Source: an uncultured virus (IMG/VR IMGVR_UViG_3300006120_000016)
Lineage: Duplodnaviria > Heunggongvirae > Uroviricota > Caudoviricetes
IMG/VR virus record: IMGVR_UViG_3300006120_000016
DNA: 20,000 bases
Strand: one strand, 5' to 3'
Position 1 is the stretch's first letter; the number at the start of each line of letters is the position of its first letter. Position numbers and translations under genes: made by a program. Below the pieces are notes generated by a model that was not told where the DNA came from, made no database searches, and saw nothing but the letters and a program-made list of their open reading frames with translations. Below are positions 1,313 to 15,109 of the stretch, one piece after another.

Positions 1313-4243
1313 TTGGAATTATTTGGATGGGAAATTGCTAAGAAGAAAGATGATTTAGATCTTTCTTCTTTTGCGCCTAAGGAAACAGATGATGGTGCTA
1401 TGGTTGTCACTGCTGGTGGCACCTATGGCACTTATTTGGACATGGAAGGTTCTGCTAAGACTGAAGCAGAATTGGTTGTCAAATATAGAGAAATGGCACT
1501 CCAGCCAGAGTGTGAAAAGGCAGTTGATGAAGTAACAAATGAAGCCATCGTTAAAGAAGGCAATGATAAAATTGTTACTTTAAATCTAGATGATATTAAG
1601 TCTTTAAACGATAAAATCAAGAAAATCGTTCAAGACGAATTTGATGGGGTCACTCAGCTTCTTAATTTCAATAACTATGGATATGAAATTTTCCGTAGAT
1701 GGTATGTAGATGGAAGACTCTACTATCATGTTATGATTGATGAGAATAATCCAGAACAAGGCATTCAGGAACTTCGTTATATAGATCCCCGCAAAATTCG
1801 TAAGGTAAGATTACTTACTCGTGAACGTAAGGGTCAAATCTATATCAACAGGAACACTGCCGAGTTTTATGTTTATAACGAAAAAGGATTCAAGGCAACC
1901 GGTTCTACTGGTATGGACAATCAGGGTCTGAGGATTTCCACAGATTCAATTCTCCATTGCACATCAGGACTTATGGATAAAGACGGAAAACTTGTATTAT
2001 CATATATCCATAAGGCAATCAAGCCATTAAATCAACTTCGTATTCTTGAAGACGCCACAGTAATTTATCGTATTTCTCGCGCTCCTGAGCGTCGTGTGTT
2101 CTATATTGATGTTGGTCAGATGCCTAAGATGAAGGCAGAACAACATATGCGTGATATGATGGTAAAGCATAAGAATCGACTAATCTATGATGCCTCCACT
2201 GGTGCAGTAAGAGATGATCGTAAGTTCGCATGTTATGCTCTAGACACAAAAATTCCACTTCTTGATGGAAGAACTTTAACTATAGAAGAAATTATCTCTG
2301 AATATAATCAGGGAAGAACAAACTGGGTTTATTCTTGTGATCCTATTACAGGCAAGTTTTATCCCGGACCTATTTCTTGGGCAGGTATTACCAAGAAAGA
2401 AAGTGATGTGGTTAGAGTCACTTTTGACAACGGAAAGAGTGTAGTCTGTACTCCAGATCATAAGTTTCCTGTTTGGAATAAAGGATTCATTGAAGCCAAG
2501 GATCTTCAAGTTGGTGAATCTTTGATTCCCGGATACCGTAGAACCAATAAGGTTGCTAATAACAGCAAAGAATACGAACAGATTTATCTTAATGACACCA
2601 AGACTTGGGAATTTACACACAGGGAAGTTGCCAAGTGGAAAGACGATCTAGGACTAACAGAAACCAAGGTTTACAAAGATCATACTGAGGATTTTTCTGT
2701 TGTTCATCACCTAGACTTCAACAGAATGAATAATAATCCAGAAAATCTCGTTTATATGGGATATCTAGATCATTGGCTATATCACACAGAAAATCAAACA
2801 ATACGATATACCGATACGATTATTGGTCAAGTCGTCAATATGCTATCTATGAGAAAAACTTCAGATGAGATTTTGTATGAACTAAACTCAAATGAAGAAA
2901 TTATTTCTGAGTGGATGTCGCTGAATTCAGAAAATCATGTCAAGAACAAGAATTTTGATCATCTAATCAAAAAAGATTTGGTCAAAATCTCTAAGATTTG
3001 TGGATTTGAAACTTGGAATAAAATGAGATCTTCCCTTTGTCCACCAAAAGATCAGATTAGAAGAAATCTAACTTCTCAAAGAGGATCTGATGAATGGAAG
3101 CAAAAATTGAGTCAAGCCAGAATAGGAATTGTAAGTAAATCAAAGACTTGGAAAATATTCAATCCAAATGGCGATATTGAAATTGTTGAAAATCTAAATG
3201 AATATTGTAGTGTCAATAATCTGAATAGAACCAATATCAAGGGTCAATTTGGATCTAGAGGATATAAGGCAGAAATCCTGAACAATCATAAAGTTATTTC
3301 TGTAGAATTTCTAGATGAAAAAACTACTGTGGCCGCATTGACAATCGACCAAGAAGAAACCTATCACAGCCATCACACATATCTTCTGGATGCAGGGGTA
3401 TATACCAAAAATACCATGCTTGAAGACTACTGGCTGCCTCGTCGTGAAGGTCAGAACGGAACAGAAATTACTACACTTCCATCAGGACAAAATCTTGGTA
3501 AGCTAGAAGACGTAGAATATTTTGAAAAGAAACTTTATAGAGCTTTAAATGTTCCTGTATCAAGATTGAATCCTGATGAATCCGGATTTAGTCTTGGCCA
3601 ATCAGATGAAATCAGCCGAGATGAACTTTCGTTCCAAAAATTCATTGATAGACTTAGACTTAGATTCTCTGCTCTGTTACTTGGTGCTTTAGAGAAGCAA
3701 TTAATTCTTAAAAAGGTTTTTGCACAATCGGATTGGGATGAGATTAAGGATCTAATTCACTTTGATTATGCAAGAGATAACTATTTTGCTGAATTAAAAG
3801 ACACAGAAATTCTTCTGAATCGTGTTGGAGCACTTGCACAGATTCAACCATTTCTTGGTATGTTCTATTCACAAGAGTGGGTTAAGAAAAATGTCCTATT
3901 CCAGACAGATAATGACATTAAAGAAATGTCTCAGCAGATGGAAAAAGAATCCAAAGAAATGGCTGAGAGGGGCCTTAATCCAGATGGAACTCCAATGATG
4001 ATGGGTCCAGAAGATGATGATCAAGGTGGTTTTGGTAGCGATTCTTCAAGTAAAGGATCTGCGCCAAGTCCTGAACCTAAAAAGGATTCTGGTGTATCAT
4101 CTGGAAATGTTGGTGGAAAAGATGCAGAACCTGCTCCTCACAATAGAAGAGTGCCAAAAGAAAGAAAAACTGAAATTGTTCAAGGTCCATCTGGACCATT
4201 CACTAGACAAATGCCTGTTAGAAGAAACCCTTCAGGTAATTAA
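1313..4243 (+). CDS. gp20: Portal vertex protein precursor containing an intein
   Basis: TTG start after AAGGAG. Portal motifs FRRWYVDGR, ELRYIDPRKI, HKAIKPLNQLRILEDA.VIYRISRAPERRVFYIDVG and MLEDYWLPRREG. A 394-aa insertion lies between DDRKFA and TMLEDYW. Confidence 0.96.
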   Translation: MELFGWEIAKKKDDLDLSSFAPKETDDGAMVVTAGGTYGTYLDMEGSAKTEAELVVKYREMALQPECEKAVDEVTNEAIVKEGNDKIVTLNLDDIKSLNDKIKKIVQDEFDGVTQLLNFNNYGYEIFRRWYVDGRLYYHVMIDENNPEQGIQELRYIDPRKIRKVRLLTRERKGQIYINRNTAEFYVYNEKGFKATGSTGMDNQGLRISTDSILHCTSGLMDKDGKLVLSYIHKAIKPLNQLRILEDATVIYRISRAPERRVFYIDVGQMPKMKAEQHMRDMMVKHKNRLIYDASTGAVRDDRKFACYALDTKIPLLDGRTLTIEEIISEYNQGRTNWVYSCDPITGKFYPGPISWAGITKKESDVVRVTFDNGKSVVCTPDHKFPVWNKGFIEAKDLQVGESLIPGYRRTNKVANNSKEYEQIYLNDTKTWEFTHREVAKWKDDLGLTETKVYKDHTEDFSVVHHLDFNRMNNNPENLVYMGYLDHWLYHTENQTIRYTDTIIGQVVNMLSMRKTSDEILYELNSNEEIISEWMSLNSENHVKNKNFDHLIKKDLVKISKICGFETWNKMRSSLCPPKDQIRRNLTSQRGSDEWKQKLSQARIGIVSKSKTWKIFNPNGDIEIVENLNEYCSVNNLNRTNIKGQFGSRGYKAEILNNHKVISVEFLDEKTTVAALTIDQEETYHSHHTYLLDAGVYTKNTMLEDYWLPRREGQNGTEITTLPSGQNLGKLEDVEYFEKKLYRALNVPVSRLNPDESGFSLGQSDEISRDELSFQKFIDRLRLRFSALLLGALEKQLILKKVFAQSDWDEIKDLIHFDYARDNYFAELKDTEILLNRVGALAQIQPFLGMFYSQEWVKKNVLFQTDNDIKEMSQQMEKESKEMAERGLNPDGTPMMMGPEDDDQGGFGSDSSSKGSAPSPEPKKDSGVSSGNVGGKDAEPAPHNRRVPKERKTEIVQGPSGPFTRQMPVRRNPSGN
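2231..3412 (+). mobile_element. Intein (394 aa) with HNH homing endonuclease domain in the portal gene
   Basis: Block A CYALDTKIPLLDG, block B VCTPDHKF (TxxH), internal HNH VVHHLDFNRMNNNPENL, block F HKVISVEF, and C-terminal HTYLLDAGVYTKN followed by Thr+1. Removing it restores DDRKFA-TMLEDYWLPRREG. Confidence 0.93.
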
Positions 4244-7926: not shown

Positions 7927-9279
7927 ATGAGCTTACATTCAGAAATTCAACAGAAGTGGAGTGCTATTCTTGAGCATGACGCTCTGCCCCGTATCGAGAA
8001 CAACCACAAGCGTTCTGTCATTGCACAGCTTCTAGAGAACACCGAACGTGCTCTTATGGAAGAGGGCAATCAGGGCGGTCAGACATCAATGCTGTCTGAG
8101 ACTTCAGGTTCACTTGCAACATCACTTTCTGGTGGCGTACAGAACTATGATCCAGTTCTAATTTCACTAGTTCGTCGTGCAATGCCTAACCTGATTGCTT
8201 ATGACATTTGCGGCGTTCAGCCAATGACTGGTCCTACCGGCCTGATCTTTGCTCTTCGTCCTCAGTACGACAATCAGAGCGGTGCCAATGCCTTCTACAA
8301 CGAAGCTAACACCGGCCAGTCAACCTATGGTCGCACAGGCAATACTCAGGTCGTTGGCCAAGCCAATCAGACTTGGGGTGGCATCTACGGTGTGAACACC
8401 GCCACTGTTGTTTCAGGCAACTCACAGACCTATAACTTTGCTGGTGGTGCTAATTCTGCTCAGTCAGAAGCTCTTGGTTCAACTGGTAACGTTGACTTCA
8501 ACCAGATGGCTTTCAGCATCGACAAGGTTACCGTGACCGCTCAGTCACGCGCCCTGAAGGCTGAATACACCATCGAACTAGCTCAGGATCTGAAGGCAAT
8601 TCACGGTCTGGATGCTGAGACTGAACTATCAACCATCCTTTCAGCAGAAATTCTTGCTGAAATCAACCGCGAAATCGTTCGTACCATCAATCTAACCGCT
8701 AATCAGGGTGCTGCTGAAACCACCACTGCAGGCACTTTCGATCTTGATATCGACTCAAATGGTCGTTGGTCAGTTGAGAAGTTCAAGGGTCTGATGTTCC
8801 AGATCGAGCGTGAAGCTAACCGTATTGCCAAAGACACCCGTCGTGGTAAGGGCAATATCATGATCTGCTCTTCTGACGTTGCTTCTGCTCTTCAGATGGC
8901 CGGTGTTCTTGATTACGCTCCTGCTCTTAACAGCAATAACCTTGAAGTCGATGATACAGGTAATACCTTCGCTGGTGTTCTTAATGGTCGCATTCGCGTC
9001 TATATCGATCCCTATGCTGCTGGTAACTATCTGACTGTTGGTTATAAGGGTGCTTCAGCATTTGATGCTGGTCTGTTCTACTGCCCATATGTTCCATTAC
9101 AGATGGTTCGTGCAGTTGGTCAGGATACCTTTCAACCGAAAATCGGCTTCAAAACCAGATACGGGGTCGTCGCCAATCCATTCGCTTTTGGCGCTAACCC
9201 CAATGGTTACACTCCCGGTCAGTTGATCCAGAGCACTAACCTATATTATCGCAGAACTCTTGTCAACAACATCCTTTAA
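7927..9279 (+). CDS. gp23: Major capsid protein
   Basis: DPVLISLVRRAMPNLIAYDICGVQPMTGPTGLIFA, SRALKAEYTIELAQDLKAIHGLDAE, EILAEINRE, DAGLFYCPYVPL and FQPKIGFKTRYG. Confidence 0.99.
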   Translation: MSLHSEIQQKWSAILEHDALPRIENNHKRSVIAQLLENTERALMEEGNQGGQTSMLSETSGSLATSLSGGVQNYDPVLISLVRRAMPNLIAYDICGVQPMTGPTGLIFALRPQYDNQSGANAFYNEANTGQSTYGRTGNTQVVGQANQTWGGIYGVNTATVVSGNSQTYNFAGGANSAQSEALGSTGNVDFNQMAFSIDKVTVTAQSRALKAEYTIELAQDLKAIHGLDAETELSTILSAEILAEINREIVRTINLTANQGAAETTTAGTFDLDIDSNGRWSVEKFKGLMFQIEREANRIAKDTRRGKGNIMICSSDVASALQMAGVLDYAPALNSNNLEVDDTGNTFAGVLNGRIRVYIDPYAAGNYLTVGYKGASAFDAGLFYCPYVPLQMVRAVGQDTFQPKIGFKTRYGVVANPFAFGANPNGYTPGQLIQSTNLYYRRTLVNNIL

Positions 9280-9304: not shown

Positions 9305-9340
9305 AAAATAGAGGAGTAGGGAAACTTACTCCTCTATTTT
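9305..9340. terminator. Bidirectional intrinsic terminator
   Basis: AAAATAGAGGAGTAGG-GAAA-CTTACTCCTCTATTTT: a 16-bp stem with one G-U pair, a GAAA tetraloop and A/T tracts on both sides, between convergent genes. Confidence 0.92.
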
Positions 9341-10767
9341 TATGAATAATATGTAAACTTACATTGACCACAATCATATATGATTCTATATTTGTTGTCA
9401 ATCATATTATCAAACTCGCTTTTAGATTCATCATACCCAGAACCTAATAATTTCGATAGTTTATTCTTCTGTGTATTAAAGCGATTAATTCTTATTTTTT
9501 TATCAGTCCAAAAATATCCAATATCAGTATATTTCTCAAATATAAACCCATGATATGCTTCTTTATTTGAATATCTTCTATCGGCATAAGAAACAAGATC
9601 TATATTAATGAACTTAAGTAGTTTTGTCAACCCTCCCACAACCACAGTATCTTTAATTGTGCAGAGACGCAATAATTCTATCTTATCTTTTTCAAACCTA
9701 GATTTACCAATAGTCATCAATTGAGCTAATTCTCCATTATGATATAATCCATAATGTTTTCCAGCAACAAATCCCTGAAGATGATTATTATTCAAAAATT
9801 CCTTGGCCTCTAGACTAGATACCGACATTATATTTGTTTTTCGGGCATGAATTTTATTATTACAAATTCCCAATTTAACTTTGATAATTGATTTCCAAAT
9901 ATCTCGCTTCAATATCCATTCGTCCTCAAATATCCTCAATAATTGTAATCCTTGATCTTCACATTCTATAGACTTTTGTAATGATTTCTTTCGTTCTTTT
10001 ACCGAAACTCTCATATCATATGAATGCCAATAAAGGCCATCAATTTCTATACAAATATTCTTAGATGGAATATGAATGTCAACTTCTTTTCTACCTAGAA
10101 TTTTATCATTGCGTTCATGATAAACACCCAAATCAGTTAGAAATCTAGACAGTTCAACCTCATATAATGAATAATTTGATGTTTGTTTTATCTTAAATCC
10201 ATGAGATTTACAATATGATATTACTGTACCATAATATACCCCCAATTCGTCTGCAATATCTACTGCAGTTCTATTGTTGATAATATACTCATTATACATC
10301 CATTTCTTATCTGTAAGTTTTTCTTGTGTATCAACACTTAAATGATAATTCGTTCTTGTGATAGATAAAATTTTCTTTATTTCTGGTCTTTGAGAATTAT
10401 ATTCATATCCATATTTGTCAAGCATAGTTTGTTTGCGCATTTCATTGGCAGCAATCGCATCCCTTTTAGAATAATGATCGTCAGATCTAACTTTAGTAGA
10501 ACATCCTATGGAACAAAACCGCCTAAATTCAATACCAGCAACATCTTTATTTCTAAACGTATATTCACCACATACTTCACAAGTTGGTGCTTCTGTTATA
10601 CCAACAACCATACATTGAATTTTGAATGATAAATTGTGAACTTCTGTGTTAAACCCATATCCATAGTTCACCACCACATCAAGCAAATTATGCTTAATAA
10701 GATATTTTTCAGAAGTTCTCTTCGCAGGGATCTTACCGTTTACCATAAATAATTCTTTATAATTCAT
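9340..10767 (-). CDS. Putative free-standing homing endonuclease (Vsr/PD-(D/E)xK, Hef-like) with Zn-ribbon, HTH and a C-terminal GNAT/Mom-like region
   Basis: CEVCG...FCSIGC; TMLDKYGYEYNSQ; HTH-like TAVDIADELGVYYGTV; nuclease core EVDIHIPSKNICIEIDGLYWH...LLRIFEDEW; C-terminal HARKT...FLNNNHLQG...ELLRLC...SYADRRYS. AT-rich and antisense to its neighbours. Confidence 0.8.
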   Translation of the reverse strand: MNYKELFMVNGKIPAKRTSEKYLIKHNLLDVVVNYGYGFNTEVHNLSFKIQCMVVGITEAPTCEVCGEYTFRNKDVAGIEFRRFCSIGCSTKVRSDDHYSKRDAIAANEMRKQTMLDKYGYEYNSQRPEIKKILSITRTNYHLSVDTQEKLTDKKWMYNEYIINNRTAVDIADELGVYYGTVISYCKSHGFKIKQTSNYSLYEVELSRFLTDLGVYHERNDKILGRKEVDIHIPSKNICIEIDGLYWHSYDMRVSVKERKKSLQKSIECEDQGLQLLRIFEDEWILKRDIWKSIIKVKLGICNNKIHARKTNIMSVSSLEAKEFLNNNHLQGFVAGKHYGLYHNGELAQLMTIGKSRFEKDKIELLRLCTIKDTVVVGGLTKLLKFINIDLVSYADRRYSNKEAYHGFIFEKYTDIGYFWTDKKIRINRFNTQKNKLSKLLGSGYDESKSEFDNMIDNKYRIIYDCGQCKFTYYS

Positions 10768-11438: not shown

Positions 11439-11876
11439 ATGACGCTCGACGAAATCTTCGAAAATTGGTCAAAAGACTCTATTATTGATAAAAATGCACT
11501 TGATAATGAATCTTTAGAAATTCCAAAAATCCACTCAAAATATCTAAAGTTCTTTGCCGTAGAGAGATTGACTCTCCAGCGTCTTGAACAAGAATACAAG
11601 ATATTATTTAAGACAAAGACAGAATATTTTGCTGGTACTTTGGATCTAGATACGATTAAGGAAAATGGATGGGAACCTAATCAGAAGATGATTCTGAAAG
11701 GGGATATTGGTATGCATATTGACGCCGATCCTCAAATTCAGAAATTGTCTCTGAAAATTGGTCTCCAGAAAGAGAAGATAAGTACTCTAGATTCTATTCT
11801 AAAGTCTTTAGCCAATCGCGGTTTCCAGATAAAAAATTCAATTGATTTTACCAAAATGATGAATGGATTGATATGA
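11439..11876 (+). CDS. uvsY: Recombination mediator UvsY
   Basis: WSKDSIID...LDNESLEIPKIHSKYL and NRGFQIKNSIDF; overlaps the uvsW start (ATGA). Confidence 0.93.
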   Translation: MTLDEIFENWSKDSIIDKNALDNESLEIPKIHSKYLKFFAVERLTLQRLEQEYKILFKTKTEYFAGTLDLDTIKENGWEPNQKMILKGDIGMHIDADPQIQKLSLKIGLQKEKISTLDSILKSLANRGFQIKNSIDFTKMMNGLI

Positions 11877-13222
11877 GTGATATTCACCTTAAACATTTTA
11901 ATGAAGTTCATGCCAGAGTAGAATGCGAAGCTGGCCTCTTGATGGAGTTGTCTGATTATCTAACATTCAAAGCAGAAAACTACAAGTTTCATCCAAAATT
12001 TAAAGCGCGTTTGTGGGACGGAAATATATCACTTGTAGGAAGAATGAATAGGCTAGTATATAAAGGTCTGGCACAAAGAATAAAAAAATTCTGTGATGAA
12101 CGAGAGTATTCGTTTTCCTTTGATGATGAGTTTCTATATGAGAATGTTTCCGAACATGAAGTTCTTGATTTTATCAAGACACTAAAACTTCCATTTGAGC
12201 CTAGAGATTATCAGATCGATGCTGTTATTAAATGTCTCAGAAGTAATAGAAGAACTCTAGTTAGTCCGACTTCAAGCGGAAAAAGTCTTATTGCATATAT
12301 TATTACTCAATGGTATAAAAACAAGACTTTAATTATTGTACCAACAATAAATCTGGTGTCTCAGTTGAAATCTGATTTTGAATCTTATGGATATAAAGGC
12401 GTTATTCATACATCATTAGATGGAATTTCTAAAGATAATAATATTCCAGCAGATTTATCAATATCAACTTGGCAATCGCTTGAGCATGGCAAACGAGGAA
12501 TGTCTGCCGAATGGTATGATCAGTTTGATTTAGTTATTGGAGATGAAGTCCACACTTTTAAAGCAACCAGTCTCATAAAAATTCTTGGTAATATGAAAAA
12601 TACCAAATATAGATTTGGCATGACCGGAACTTTAGATGGGCATCCATTAAATGAAGCCACAATTGAAGGATTGTTTGGAGCTAAGTATAAAACAACAACC
12701 ACCAAAGAATTAATGAATCGTGGAGATGTAACTAAACTCAAAATCAAATGCATAGTTCTGAAATATCCAGATGAAATTTGTAAGGAATATTCAAAAGGTA
12801 TATACGATCCTATTACAAAAAAATATAGGAAAAAGACTTATCAAGAAGAAATAGATTTCATCACATCATATCAACCAAGAACCAACTTTATTAAAAATCT
12901 AACTCTGTCACTTAAAGGCAATAAACTAGTATTCTTCAGAATGAAAGAACATGGTAAGGATCTTTATGATGCTATAAGTAGTGATACAAAGCATAATGTA
13001 TTCTATGTTGATGGTGATGTAAAAGGATCTGATAGAGAAAAGATTCGTCATGCTATTGAAGATATACATTATAATATAACTTTACATTTCAATGATGTGA
13101 GTAAAACATTCCCGTCAGGAACAAAGGTATTATTATCTGATGGTTCTGTTAAATTAGTAGAAAATATTACATGTGACGACGATATTTCAGATATATGGAT
13201 ATGTGAAAATATAAATATATAA
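11873..13222 (+). CDS. uvsW: SF2 DNA helicase UvsW, N-terminal fragment with a 50-aa non-helicase tail
   Basis: PRDYQ, Walker A SPTSSGKS, IIVPTINLVSQ, DEVH, GMTGT and motif IV region LVFF. Similarity ends at DREKIRHAIED, before motifs V and VI. Confidence 0.93.
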   Translation: MSDIHLKHFNEVHARVECEAGLLMELSDYLTFKAENYKFHPKFKARLWDGNISLVGRMNRLVYKGLAQRIKKFCDEREYSFSFDDEFLYENVSEHEVLDFIKTLKLPFEPRDYQIDAVIKCLRSNRRTLVSPTSSGKSLIAYIITQWYKNKTLIIVPTINLVSQLKSDFESYGYKGVIHTSLDGISKDNNIPADLSISTWQSLEHGKRGMSAEWYDQFDLVIGDEVHTFKATSLIKILGNMKNTKYRFGMTGTLDGHPLNEATIEGLFGAKYKTTTTKELMNRGDVTKLKIKCIVLKYPDEICKEYSKGIYDPITKKYRKKTYQEEIDFITSYQPRTNFIKNLTLSLKGNKLVFFRMKEHGKDLYDAISSDTKHNVFYVDGDVKGSDREKIRHAIEDIHYNITLHFNDVSKTFPSGTKVLLSDGSVKLVENITCDDDISDIWICENINI

Positions 13223-13225
13223 ATA
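13210..13225 (+). promoter_or_regulatory. Tandem T4 late promoters at the end of uvsW-N
   Basis: TATAAATA-TATAAATA at 13210-13217 and 13218-13225, overlapping the last codons and stop of uvsW-N, 27 nt before the HNH start. Confidence 0.75.
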
Positions 13226-13252
13226 TACCAGTAGTCATAAGAATATATTTAT

Positions 13253-14356
13253 ATGGATTTTATTGAAATTTTTTATAGTGTGTTGGGAACCCCAGATTCT
13301 TTAGACAAGTTAATTGAATATATAGATTATTGTATATCTAATAAGACTGAAGAAATAAATGAAATATATTGTGAAAACCACCATATATTACCAAGAAGTA
13401 TGTTTCCTAACTATATTAATGAAACTTTTAATATAGTTAGATTGCCGTATGCTTCTCACATAGAAGCCCATAAATTATTGGCAATGGCGTATACCATAAA
13501 ACCATTTACTAGACCATTAAATAATATGGTTCCATCTGATGACATCACTCGAAATCTTCTTTCTACAGCACAAAAAAGATGGTGGAAAGAATTATCTGAT
13601 GAAGCCAAGAAACTTTTTGGAGACAACATTTCAAAAAAGAAAATTGATAGGTGGAACTCAATGACAGACGAAGAACAGGATTTGATTAGAGATCATTGCA
13701 AACAAATGTCGTTAACCAGACATGCTAAGGAAGGTTCTGCAGAAATTTTATCTAATCAAATGAAATTACAATGGCAAGATGAAGATTATAGAAATTATAT
13801 GATTCAAAAGGTTATAGATAGATATAATGATCCCGAATATTATGAATTCTTTTGTGAAAGAATGCAATATAGATGGGATAATATGCCTGAAGAAGAAAGA
13901 GAAAAATTCAGAGATAATATGACTATTGTTAATAGAGATATGAATAAAAGAGAAGATGCCGGTAAAAAAATAAAAGCAAAATGGCAAGATGAAGAATATC
14001 TCAAAAACCTAGAAATCGGTAAATCTAATTCCGAAAGAGAACAAAATAGAAGAAAAAATATGGGAAATATACAACTTAAAATTTGGGCAGATCCTATTAA
14101 AAAGGCAGAAAGATTAGAAAAAAGAAAAAAGACAAGAAAGGTTTGGTGGAACAATGGAGTAGATGAAATAAAATCTGTAGATGCTCCAAGAGAAAATTGG
14201 GTACGAGGTCGAAAGAAACCAAGTAAACCACCTAAAGAAAAATCTTCGCCAAAAAAAGTAAAGTGCCCACACTGCGATGTTATAGGGAACATTTCTCCAA
14301 TGCATAGGTGGCATTTTGATAATTGTAAGAAAAGGATTAAAGATGAAACCAACTAA
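13253..14356 (+). CDS. Free-standing HNH homing endonuclease (MobE-like N-terminus) inserted in uvsW
   Basis: YCENHHILPRSM...NIVRL...HIEAHKLLA HNH module; about 7 W/Y-anchored helical repeats; WWNNG...WVRGR; C-terminal CPHC...HRWHFDNC Zn finger. Confidence 0.85.
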   Translation: MDFIEIFYSVLGTPDSLDKLIEYIDYCISNKTEEINEIYCENHHILPRSMFPNYINETFNIVRLPYASHIEAHKLLAMAYTIKPFTRPLNNMVPSDDITRNLLSTAQKRWWKELSDEAKKLFGDNISKKKIDRWNSMTDEEQDLIRDHCKQMSLTRHAKEGSAEILSNQMKLQWQDEDYRNYMIQKVIDRYNDPEYYEFFCERMQYRWDNMPEEEREKFRDNMTIVNRDMNKREDAGKKIKAKWQDEEYLKNLEIGKSNSEREQNRRKNMGNIQLKIWADPIKKAERLEKRKKTRKVWWNNGVDEIKSVDAPRENWVRGRKKPSKPPKEKSSPKKVKCPHCDVIGNISPMHRWHFDNCKKRIKDETN

Positions 14357-14670
14357 GGTAGAAATGGAGGTATGTGACTCGATTCTTATCGGGTCACTTT
14401 TGACTGGGTACAACCTCAACCGGTGTGAACATTAAGAAATTACACCATATGATTGCTGCTTCTCCGTCTAAATCTAAGATTAAAGTTCTTCAGTCTATTG
14501 GTAGAATGCTTCGTCTACACGAATCAAAAGATGAAGCAATTCTCTATGATATTATAGACAACCTTGAATATAAATCACATAAGAATTTTACTTTGAATCA
14601 TTTCTTGGAAAGAATTAAGATATATACTCAAGAGAAGTTCTCTTTTAAACTTTACAATGTAGGATTATAA
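14343..14670 (+). CDS. uvsW: UvsW C-terminal fragment, split across two frames (+1 shift near 14400-14408)
   Basis: ATG 14343 (AAGGA SD) reads MKPTKVEMEVCDSILIGSL, and that frame stops at 14435. The +1 frame from 14404 reads LGTTSTGVNIKKLHHMIAASPSKSKIKVLQSIGRMLRLH (helicase motifs V and VI). Confidence 0.8.
14374..14401 (+). other. 10-bp RNA hairpin followed by UUUU inside the uvsW-C 5' coding region
   Basis: GTGACTCGAT-TCTT-ATCGGGTCAC (one G-U pair), then TTTT. Confidence 0.6.
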
Positions 14671-14671
14671 T

Positions 14672-15109
14672 ATGGAAACGGTGCTTATCAGACTTACTAA
14701 TAATGACAGAATTGCTGGAAAACTCATATATCATAATAATTATATGGTTTCTTTATATGCTCCCATGAGCATTAAAAAGGAACAACATATAATGTTGGAT
14801 GAAGATTCTGATGATCCATCATCTAAAGGATATTATGTTTATACTCCTTATGATCCACTTTCTGATTCAGCTATGGTTGTTTTTGATATCCAACATGTTC
14901 TTACTGTAACTATTCCTAAAGACATTATCGAAAAGTTCTATAATGAGGCTTGGGTTAAATACTATCCTAAATATGAAAACTTCAGGAAATCAATGATTGA
15001 CAGATATGATCTGGAAGATGACTTTCTAGATGATAATGAATTTAATCCAGATAAGCTAAAGGATATGTTCAAAGAGTTTCTAAGTAAACCTAAATCAGAT
15101 AATAAGTAA
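14672..15109 (+). CDS. Hypothetical protein of the type found downstream of uvsW in T4-like phages (possible Sm-like fold)
   Basis: LIRLTNNDRIAGKL...PM...YDPLSD...HVLTV pattern; AGGA SD; synteny. Confidence 0.7.
   Translation: METVLIRLTNNDRIAGKLIYHNNYMVSLYAPMSIKKEQHIMLDEDSDDPSSKGYYVYTPYDPLSDSAMVVFDIQHVLTVTIPKDIIEKFYNEAWVKYYPKYENFRKSMIDRYDLEDDFLDDNEFNPDKLKDMFKEFLSKPKSDNK

Follow-up and report, generated by a model that had tools for sequence, protein, structure and literature searches.

A probable Mob-type homing cassette with a Hint-derived tail in the uvsW gene of an uncultured T4-like phage

The MobA element of T4-like phages, on which a study by Bonocora et al. reportedly appeared in 2011, was taken as the main comparison for a uvsW helicase gene that is split by an HNH homing-endonuclease gene in a 20,000-nucleotide (nt) stretch of IMGVR_UViG_3300006120_000016 (the window, in which all coordinates are given), which comes from an uncultured T4-like myovirus. 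For a long time the bypass in T4 gene 60, 50 nt in length, stood as an isolated curiosity. According to the accessible text of a preprint (Manning & Atkins, bioRxiv 10.1101/2022.08.31.505936), MobA divides the topoisomerase gene, the two parts being genes 39 and 60, carries the 50-nt bypass, and consists of an HNH gene, an in-frame extension of about 44 amino acids (aa) on the first piece, a leader that lies partly on the endonuclease open reading frame (ORF) but in another frame, a region homologous to the host codons that it replaces and, last, a cassette that breaks the frame. The same text describes an endonuclease that decays while the rest persists and a bypass that guards against self-cleavage, places bypass relatives only in topoisomerase genes, calls the cassette unique, and suggests that added tails "may be another general strategy" beside inteins and introns (bioRxiv 10.1101/2022.08.31.505936).

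Three further systems were compared, each as given in the accessible part of its source. In Aeh1 the HNH gene mobE lies in the coding region of nrdA and yields two polypeptides with added tails (Friedrich et al. 2007, as cited in PMC2988022), which reassemble without splicing and with demonstrated function; unlike the uvsW cassette, that locus has no frame-breaking insert. The loci of Dassa et al. 2009 (PMC2677866) share with uvsW a DNA-metabolism gene of phage type broken by a free-standing endonuclease and Hint sequence at the break, but carry complete N- and C-intein fragments and a Vsr-like endonuclease, whereas the uvsW cassette holds about 30 Hint residues and no catalytic blocks; the word uvsW has 0 occurrences in the accessible text of that paper. 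T4 uvsW is the target of SegE, a free-standing endonuclease of the GIY-YIG family encoded beside the gene (Table 1, PMC2988022), whereas the endonuclease described here is encoded inside uvsW and is of the HNH type. No description of a split uvsW was found in the papers examined from a full-text literature search, with most subscription journals outside its coverage.

Positions 13064-14405 are probably one Mob-type (HNH) homing cassette inserted in uvsW, with a fossil Hint piece aboard and about 29 nt of uvsW replaced. Its order is tail, late-promoter motifs, HNH gene, ribosome-binding site and ATG, leader, eight codons, hairpin and 7-nt insert. As in MobA/gene 60, an HNH homing-endonuclease gene splits the gene of an essential-type DNA enzyme and is mobile as a unit with added flanks, and the first piece gains an in-frame C-terminal extension (52 aa here). 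The new start and the leader of the second piece share sequence with the endonuclease ORF, read in another frame (14 nt here), and the host codons that were lost are made good by a region brought in with the cassette. Immediately behind that region comes an insert that breaks the frame, the boundary of the element falls at the codon with which the host gene continues, and the endonuclease decays while the rest is kept. It differs in its host gene (uvsW rather than topoisomerase), in its dimensions (insert of 7 nt versus 20-50 nt, leader of 11 aa versus about 30 aa), in lacking a stop after the take-off codon, in a hairpin 5' of that codon, and in the Hint derivation of its extension; the bypass here is a candidate. 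The locus is read as a Mob-type split-gene cassette with an intein-derived extension and a minimal frame-breaking insert, and the same layout in uvsW with a 7-nt break would show that endonuclease, target-breaking insert and added tails together are a general design.

A shared block in two uvsW lineages

The ORF that opens the split gene (11873-13222, 449 aa) matched Pfam UvsW_N (expectation value, E, 3.5e-20) and ResIII (E 5e-20), and residues 6-389 of T4 UvsW (2oca) aligned with its residues 8-391 (E 1e-60). In a tblastn search of 2584 phage records, UvsW homology ended at residues 396-397 (AIED, to 13063), and the closest uninterrupted homologues (L008-L014) read ...AVED-EENA-ILIAS-LGTTSTG... 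across this site. Among the 76 other uvsW loci, 72 were intact through motif VI, four were ended by the locus edge and 0/76 were split. At the split locus no UvsW with N-terminal domain and superfamily 2 (SF2) motifs I-VI in one frame was found: the N-terminal domain and the motifs up to IV lie in 11873-13063, and motifs V and VI appear only in the +1 frame from 14404. This C-part carries motif V (STG), motif VI (QSIGR) and the C-terminus, matches T4 UvsW 405-501 when read with one +1 step (E 7e-15), and is shut off upstream in its own frame by TGA 14401-14403.

An earlier note on this DNA had the helicase broken after AIED, with an HNH gene inside and a downstream piece starting at DSILIGSL, and the ORFs, the tblastn matches and the phrog matches agree with that arrangement. 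Its view of the downstream ORF as the C-half of the helicase did not hold, as this ORF stops after 30 codons and motifs V and VI stand in the +1 frame; nor did the assignment of DSILIGSL to that half, as these codons lie within the mobile cassette block. Because the 7-nt insert breaks the downstream ORF, the two halves as first read cannot form a complete helicase.

The extent of the cassette was delimited by comparison with a second lineage. The closest record (G001) matched the window at 100% over 12800-14800. In the more diverged locus L007 the UvsW N-piece is 78% identical to that of the window and the flanking uvsW DNA is about 75-80% identical, but 13052-14405 is 100% identical except for a 657-nt deletion and the inversion of an 8-nt loop in L007. 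As this block is 100% identical across lineages whose helicase is 78% identical, it is taken as one mobile unit, and since the tail, the leader, the DSILIGSL codons and the 7-nt insert all fall within it, they belong to the cassette. The L007 deletion is in frame (window 13647-14303), lies between two copies of an 8-nt direct repeat and leaves a 148-aa ORF (L007 1619-2065), with tail, leader, hairpin and 7-nt insert untouched. Locus L165 belongs to the L007 lineage yet has the loop orientation of the window.

Identity ends at 14405, within the Leu codon (CTG or CTA) where the parental sequence resumes. Over 14404-14448 the window and L007 differ in the +1 frame by six synonymous codon changes and one Val/Ile replacement; because these differences are nearly all synonymous there, the +1 frame is the historically selected one. 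DNA similarity to the uvsW of distant phages starts at 14407-14416, immediately 3' of the cassette, which fits an endonuclease target in motif-V DNA that is split by the insert. The cassette would spread when the endonuclease cuts a cassette-free uvsW, perhaps within the highly conserved motif-V DNA just downstream of the cassette site, and recombinational repair copies the cassette in. By analogy with MobA/gene 60, the diverged eight codons and the 7-nt insert would disrupt the target of the enzyme and so spare carriers self-cleavage.

In one isolate of Synechococcus phage ACG-2014d (L168, 1501-3056) uvsW is annotated as two coding sequences about 95 nt apart, with the gap at a position that differs from the break studied here. 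In a second ACG-2014d isolate (H20) the uvsW match is in one piece within one annotated coding sequence, and the two-part annotation is probably due to mutation or sequencing error.

The tail on the first helicase piece

The tail (coding part 13064-13219) is absent from the 72 intact UvsW homologues, in which it had been looked for as an ordinary loop, and it occurs in just two protein clusters of similar length (searched: proteins of 246-786 aa). The earlier note had recognised it as an addition to the N-half, of 50 aa from 13070; the addition is real and came with the cassette, but measures 52 aa from 13064.

Profile PF05203 (Hom_end_hint) matched the whole ORF at E 0.034 and the tail alone at E 0.0035 and 0.0019, with 15-19 bits under a cut-off of 32, the matched profile positions being exactly 2-27. 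Against PDB sequences phmmer gave eight matches at E<=10, seven of them to VMA/PI-SceI or other intein chains; the intein matches begin at the very first intein residues (best E 0.02). In a protein-language-model Atlas the top named clusters were Hint families (first match 0.91). An exhaustive phmmer search of 1.84 billion representative proteins returned 12 matches at E<=0.001, the best at 1.7e-11, a value inflated by several matched stretches per protein. Nine of these 12 carry Hint-family Pfam domains far above cut-off, the remaining three being one RCC1-repeat protein and two without clear families. In 9/9 Hint proteins tail residue Thr15 (ACA 13106-13108), which stands at the Cys1 position of Hint modules, falls on the Hint-opening Cys, and similarity runs to about tail residue 43; with one of them (P0006) BLASTP gave 43% identity over 35 aa (E 2e-8). 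Because nine of the 12 library-wide matches are Hint proteins and Thr15 falls on Cys1, the tail, as judged from its residues, holds a genuine Hint N-terminal motif, comprising approximately the first 30 residues with Thr in place of Cys1.

Beyond this motif, direct reading of the tail found no TxxH of block B, no C-terminal blocks and no terminal HN, in agreement with the earlier note, which had already listed Cys1, TxxH and a terminal HN as missing. The tail ends 37 residues past position 1, and a complete Hint fold was not found, with about 30 of roughly 130 residues present. The stretch would then be a catalytically dead relic of intein type, carried along or co-opted as an extension, and we infer that it neither splices nor forms a Hint fold. 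In the tail, exchange between the intein-borne and the free-standing life style of endonucleases has left a tangible mark.

The proposed half-Hint, rather than a normal split intein, thus keeps its N-terminal motif with Thr, but only some 30 of roughly 130 residues of it, and gains nothing from the leader: in profile searches against Hint families the tail found PF05203 below threshold, whereas the leader, which had been likened to the first strand of a C-terminal intein fragment, found no support and no Pfam match. Matching N- and C-intein fragments of the Dassa type were not found, the N-side holding a truncated motif and the C-side none. Likeness of a tail strand to the lead-in of block B was also without support. 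The tail core had been aligned to block A of the portal intein in the window; Hint-likeness of this core was upheld by the library searches, but its similarity to the portal intein is not significant, and the tail was rejected as a copy of that intein (BLASTP E 0.31; 165 of 3000 shuffles score as high). A decayed copy of helicase motifs V-VI, suggested by MAFFT placement, was likewise rejected (BLASTP E 0.38; 811 of 3000 shuffles as high), and the best hhalign match to a 28-sequence UvsW profile lay elsewhere, with a probability of 0.4%.

The earlier note had offered two uses for such a module. In the first, the tail strands would pair with a leader strand and hold the two helicase pieces together as a clasp, without splicing, which we consider unlikely. 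The Hint derivation of the tail speaks for such pairing, and so does the retention of split-gene extensions elsewhere, those of Aeh1 NrdA being needed for activity (accessible text of bioRxiv 10.1101/2022.08.31.505936). On the other side, the leader has no Hint similarity, tail and leader together amount to about 63 aa, the last tail codons coincide with promoter motifs, and the downstream ORF is frame-broken. The AlphaFold2 model of the N-piece has a confident helicase core and gives residues 394-449 a predicted local distance difference test score (pLDDT) of 28-43, with just two predicted strands of three residues each; these values would weigh against a clasp, but as the tail is not confidently modelled, the model is uninformative on this point.

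The second use, an active atypical split intein with Thr1 and a short N-fragment that trans-splices the helicase, is scarcely credible. Naturally split inteins with very short N-fragments exist, and Thr could in principle serve as nucleophile. Against this, the locus lacks TxxH, blocks F and G, a terminal Asn and a Cys, Ser or Thr as first C-extein residue, no ORF of about 100 aa is available for the role of long C-fragment, Hint matches are absent from the HNH protein, and 14 extra residues stand between the helicase and position 1; Thr1/Cys+1 splicing chemistry, as once suggested, is very unlikely without blocks B, F and G.

Nine large proteins among the matches (within P0004-P0015; 823-1757 aa) carry several Hint modules each, and in 6/9 of them the preceding module ends in HN at most nine residues from the Cys of the next. 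Some alignments with the tail run a few residues upstream, weakly, onto the "LxHN" end of a preceding module, no more than a lead to the origin of the first 14 tail residues.

The downstream junction and the frame break

The second helicase piece is preceded by AAGGA, which sits 6 nt upstream of ATG 14343. The leader that begins there overlaps the HNH ORF by 14 nt in a different frame, has no match to any Pfam family and ends in ...EVC, the next residue being D. Of the eight replacement codons, 15/24 nt are identical to L008 and 9/24 differ (codon alignment with L008-L014), and 5/8 residues are identical, four of these by synonymous codons, while the three changed residues supply stem bases of an RNA hairpin. 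This hairpin draws its stem from the replacement codons and closes on the first base of CUU; it folds at -14.9 kcal/mol (z -4.2; 0/200 shuffles fold as well), versus -4 to -9.5 kcal/mol, not significant, at the same site in five intact homologues. Relative to L008-L014, seven extra nt then follow TCA CT before the parental sequence returns.

Sequencing error was rejected as an explanation of the frame break: over 13000-14500 three assemblies agree at every position, and the same insert is present in 8/8 hairpin-bearing sequences from two lineages, so the break is real. For a complete helicase C-piece, ribosomes would have to move +1 directly behind the hairpin, and the +1 frame has no conserved start before ATG 14449, a start that would omit motif V. 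In the unshifted frame the codon after CUU is UUG, and rare GGG/AGG follow two codons later (among 4378 codons counted in window genes, no Gly codon is rarer than GGG, at 3.0 per 1000, and AGG, at 2.1 per 1000, is a rare one for Arg).

It is possible, though we would not expect it, that the split helicase is recoded, with ribosomes from 14343 reading the leader and the eight replacement codons, then hopping 7 nt or shifting +1 with the aid of the refolding hairpin 5' of the site, and the resulting C-piece assembling with the N-piece. Two routes were considered. Ribosomes could hop 7 nt, taking off at Leu CUU and landing at Leu CUG/CUA, and the residues would then follow one another exactly as in the parental protein, or they could shift +1 at ACU ahead of the rare GGG/AGG. 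In favour of such recoding, the cassette goes to the expense of carrying its own ribosome-binding site and ATG, with a replacement strand that is in frame and conserves residues, the adjoining 5' hairpin (z -4.2) is absent from the same site in the five intact homologues, and the unshifted frame runs into GGG/AGG and a stop 10 codons on. MobA/gene 60, with the assembly of gp39 and gp60 in T4, offers a precedent, and hairpins that refold upstream of the site reportedly promote +1 frameshifting (PMC6321510, accessible part). The locus resembles described short hops and +1 sites in its synonymous Leu codons, rare A-site codon and hairpin directly upstream (accessible parts of PMC5009743 and PMC6321510), and short synthetic stop-hops and bypassed inserts of yeast mitochondria provide further parallels (PMC5009743).

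It differs from these sites in that the standard heptamers are absent here and the accessible text of PMC5009743 has no known natural 7-nt gap; a utilised 7-nt hop is thus without precedent there, where only synthetic stop-hops and longer natural bypasses are cited. Neither a stop nor a clearly hungry codon stands directly after CUU, and take-off CUU and landing CUG/CUA are synonymous but not identical, so that one transfer RNA must read CUU, CUG and CUA. More tentative is the wider proposal of a second, independent recoding cassette linked to a homing endonuclease, a miniature counterpart of gene 60 in a different gene, with a 7-nt insert that would shield the endonuclease target and a tail made from the first strands of an intein, by which a two-piece UvsW would be rebuilt. 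If the break is crossed, the locus would be a far simpler system for studying hopping or +1 shifting, and if recoding is true, the intein route and the "added tails" route to tolerating an endonuclease insertion would be linked.

UvsW is dispensable for T4 growth in the laboratory. We lean slightly towards a dead gene, in which homing would have spread the selfish cassette even though the 7-nt scar that it leaves ruins the C-piece, and UvsW would be non-functional, the tail, leader and hairpin having no role for the helicase. Consistent with this, the frame is broken in 8/8 copies, the first conserved +1-frame start (ATG 14449) is already past motif V, the endonuclease is already decaying in one lineage, and one related locus (L166) has no N-part. 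If translation ended 10 codons on, however, neither a start site nor a residue-conserving strand would serve any purpose; both pieces also remain open as ORFs, and the presence of intact uvsW in 72/76 related loci (four ended by the locus edge) suggests that the gene is normally kept. Even with a dead gene, the locus would clearly illustrate the spread of a selfish element at the expense of a gene that is conserved among phages. That something other than recoding or inactivation applies seems improbable.

The idea that the HNH ORF lies in a group I intron, tail and leader being intron read-through, has almost nothing to recommend it beyond the occurrence of such introns in T4-like phages and the U in which exon 1 would end. 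No Rfam match reached gathering score in the window, no intron model matched at E<=10 in 12800-14800, just 19 nt separate the HNH stop from DSILIGSL, and the 7-nt frame break survives any splice.

Several points count against the Mob-type cassette and the recoding that it may carry. No cassette-free sibling was found for either lineage, so the parental sequence could only be reconstructed, from 55-62% identical homologues; the cassette is identical in both lineages, and therefore no post-insertion selection is measurable on either helicase piece; and the N-parts of L165 and L007 differ by only two substitutions. The HNH gene is only distantly similar to named Mob-like genes, T4 MobA lying outside the comparison, the 14 tail residues ahead of the Hint motif are unexplained, and cleavage, homing and self-protection are argued by analogy. 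At the junction there is no standard slippery site and no stop codon after the proposed take-off codon, the hairpin does not enclose that codon, the shortest bypass in the accessible text of the MobA study is 20 nt (bioRxiv 10.1101/2022.08.31.505936), and the hairpin with its UUUU was flagged as terminator-like by a scan and could be a terminator. Locus L166 carries the capsid-end, tail and uvsY genes of a diverged phage, then a 73-aa ORF with a related zinc-finger end, and next the leader, hairpin and 7-nt insert, all identical, ahead of a uvsW C-part of the L007 type, and the N-piece of uvsW is missing; the locus is a recombinant or possibly an assembly chimera, joined at the shared endonuclease 3' end, and if real it argues that uvsW is expendable.

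The endonuclease gene and other elements of the window

The HNH protein matched phrog_655 (E 7e-19) and phrog_12434, "HNH endonuclease" (E 7e-16). Its tblastn relatives in cultured phages are distant (24-33% over parts) and carry the annotation mobile or homing endonuclease in T4-like phages, one of them located between nrdD and nrdG of a Tequatrovirus. No Hint match was found in the protein with Pfam. Relationship to the endonuclease of the portal intein was rejected, and so was the idea that the closest relatives sit in genes fractured by split inteins: in the two loci inspected out of 77 (L156 and L088) the endonuclease genes are free-standing between ordinary genes. Features of the split locus are collected below.

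Features of the split uvsW locus, in window coordinates
Feature	Position	Strand	Remark
uvsW N-part, 397 codons	11873..13063	+	UvsW N-terminal domain, RecA1, first part of RecA2
In-frame C-terminal extension (tail), 52 codons + TAA	13064..13222	+	Cassette-added
Hint N-terminal relic (block A + following strand)	13106..13192	+	Tail residues 15-43
12-nt perfect inverted repeat	13209..13254	+	3' arm over HNH start codon
Two overlapping TATAAATA motifs	13210..13225	+	Just upstream of HNH ORF; starts 13210, 13218
Free-standing HNH homing-endonuclease gene, 367 aa	13253..14356	+	Mob-like, C-terminal CxxC...HxxxC
13-nt perfect inverted repeat, 8-nt loop (13420-13427)	13407..13440	+	Inside HNH gene
New ATG + 11-codon leader MKPTKVEMEVC	14343..14375	+	Read directly
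Strong RNA hairpin, 10 pairs (one G-U), 4-nt loop, then UUUU	14374..14397	+	
Eight cassette-borne codons DSILIGSL	14376..14399	+	Replace deleted NAILIASL strand
7-nt insert vs intact uvsW	14399..14405	+	Placement ambiguous by 1-2 nt; breaks frame
uvsW C-part (motifs V, VI, C-terminus)	14404..14670	+	Open only in +1 frame vs ATG 14343
TAA ending unshifted 30-codon product	14433..14435	+	

The pair of TATAAATA motifs, which we take to be the T4-type late promoter consensus, overlaps the last tail codons and the tail stop. The motif occurs eight times in the window versus 2.2 expected (0/200 shuffles reach 8), and four other copies stand just upstream of the ORFs starting at 1313, 6820 and 7927 or just past the end of the portal ORF. 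The 12-nt inverted repeat over the HNH start codon may form a hairpin that sequesters the start site, a layout known for other phage homing-endonuclease genes (Edgell review, PMC2988022, accessible part); it is a lead only, because the fold energy of this segment is no better than that of shuffles (z -0.24). The loop of the repeat within the HNH gene is inverted in L007 (1786-1793) and not in L165, and the inversion alters three endonuclease residues.

Because the window holds a portal intein, the endonuclease gene at 9340-10767 and the HNH gene of uvsW, three endonuclease-type elements are present in it. The portal ORF (1313-4243) carries a 394-aa intein at 2231-3412 (Intein_splicing E 3e-13, 50 bits versus a cut-off of 36). 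This intein contains a weak HNH_3 match, begins with Cys and ends in KN followed by Thr, not in the usual HN. On the minus strand, 9340-10767 encodes a 475-aa free-standing homing endonuclease (phrog_3339, E 1e-95, with a weak Vsr match) and lies between ORF 7927-9279, a putative major capsid gene by its sequence, and the next gene.

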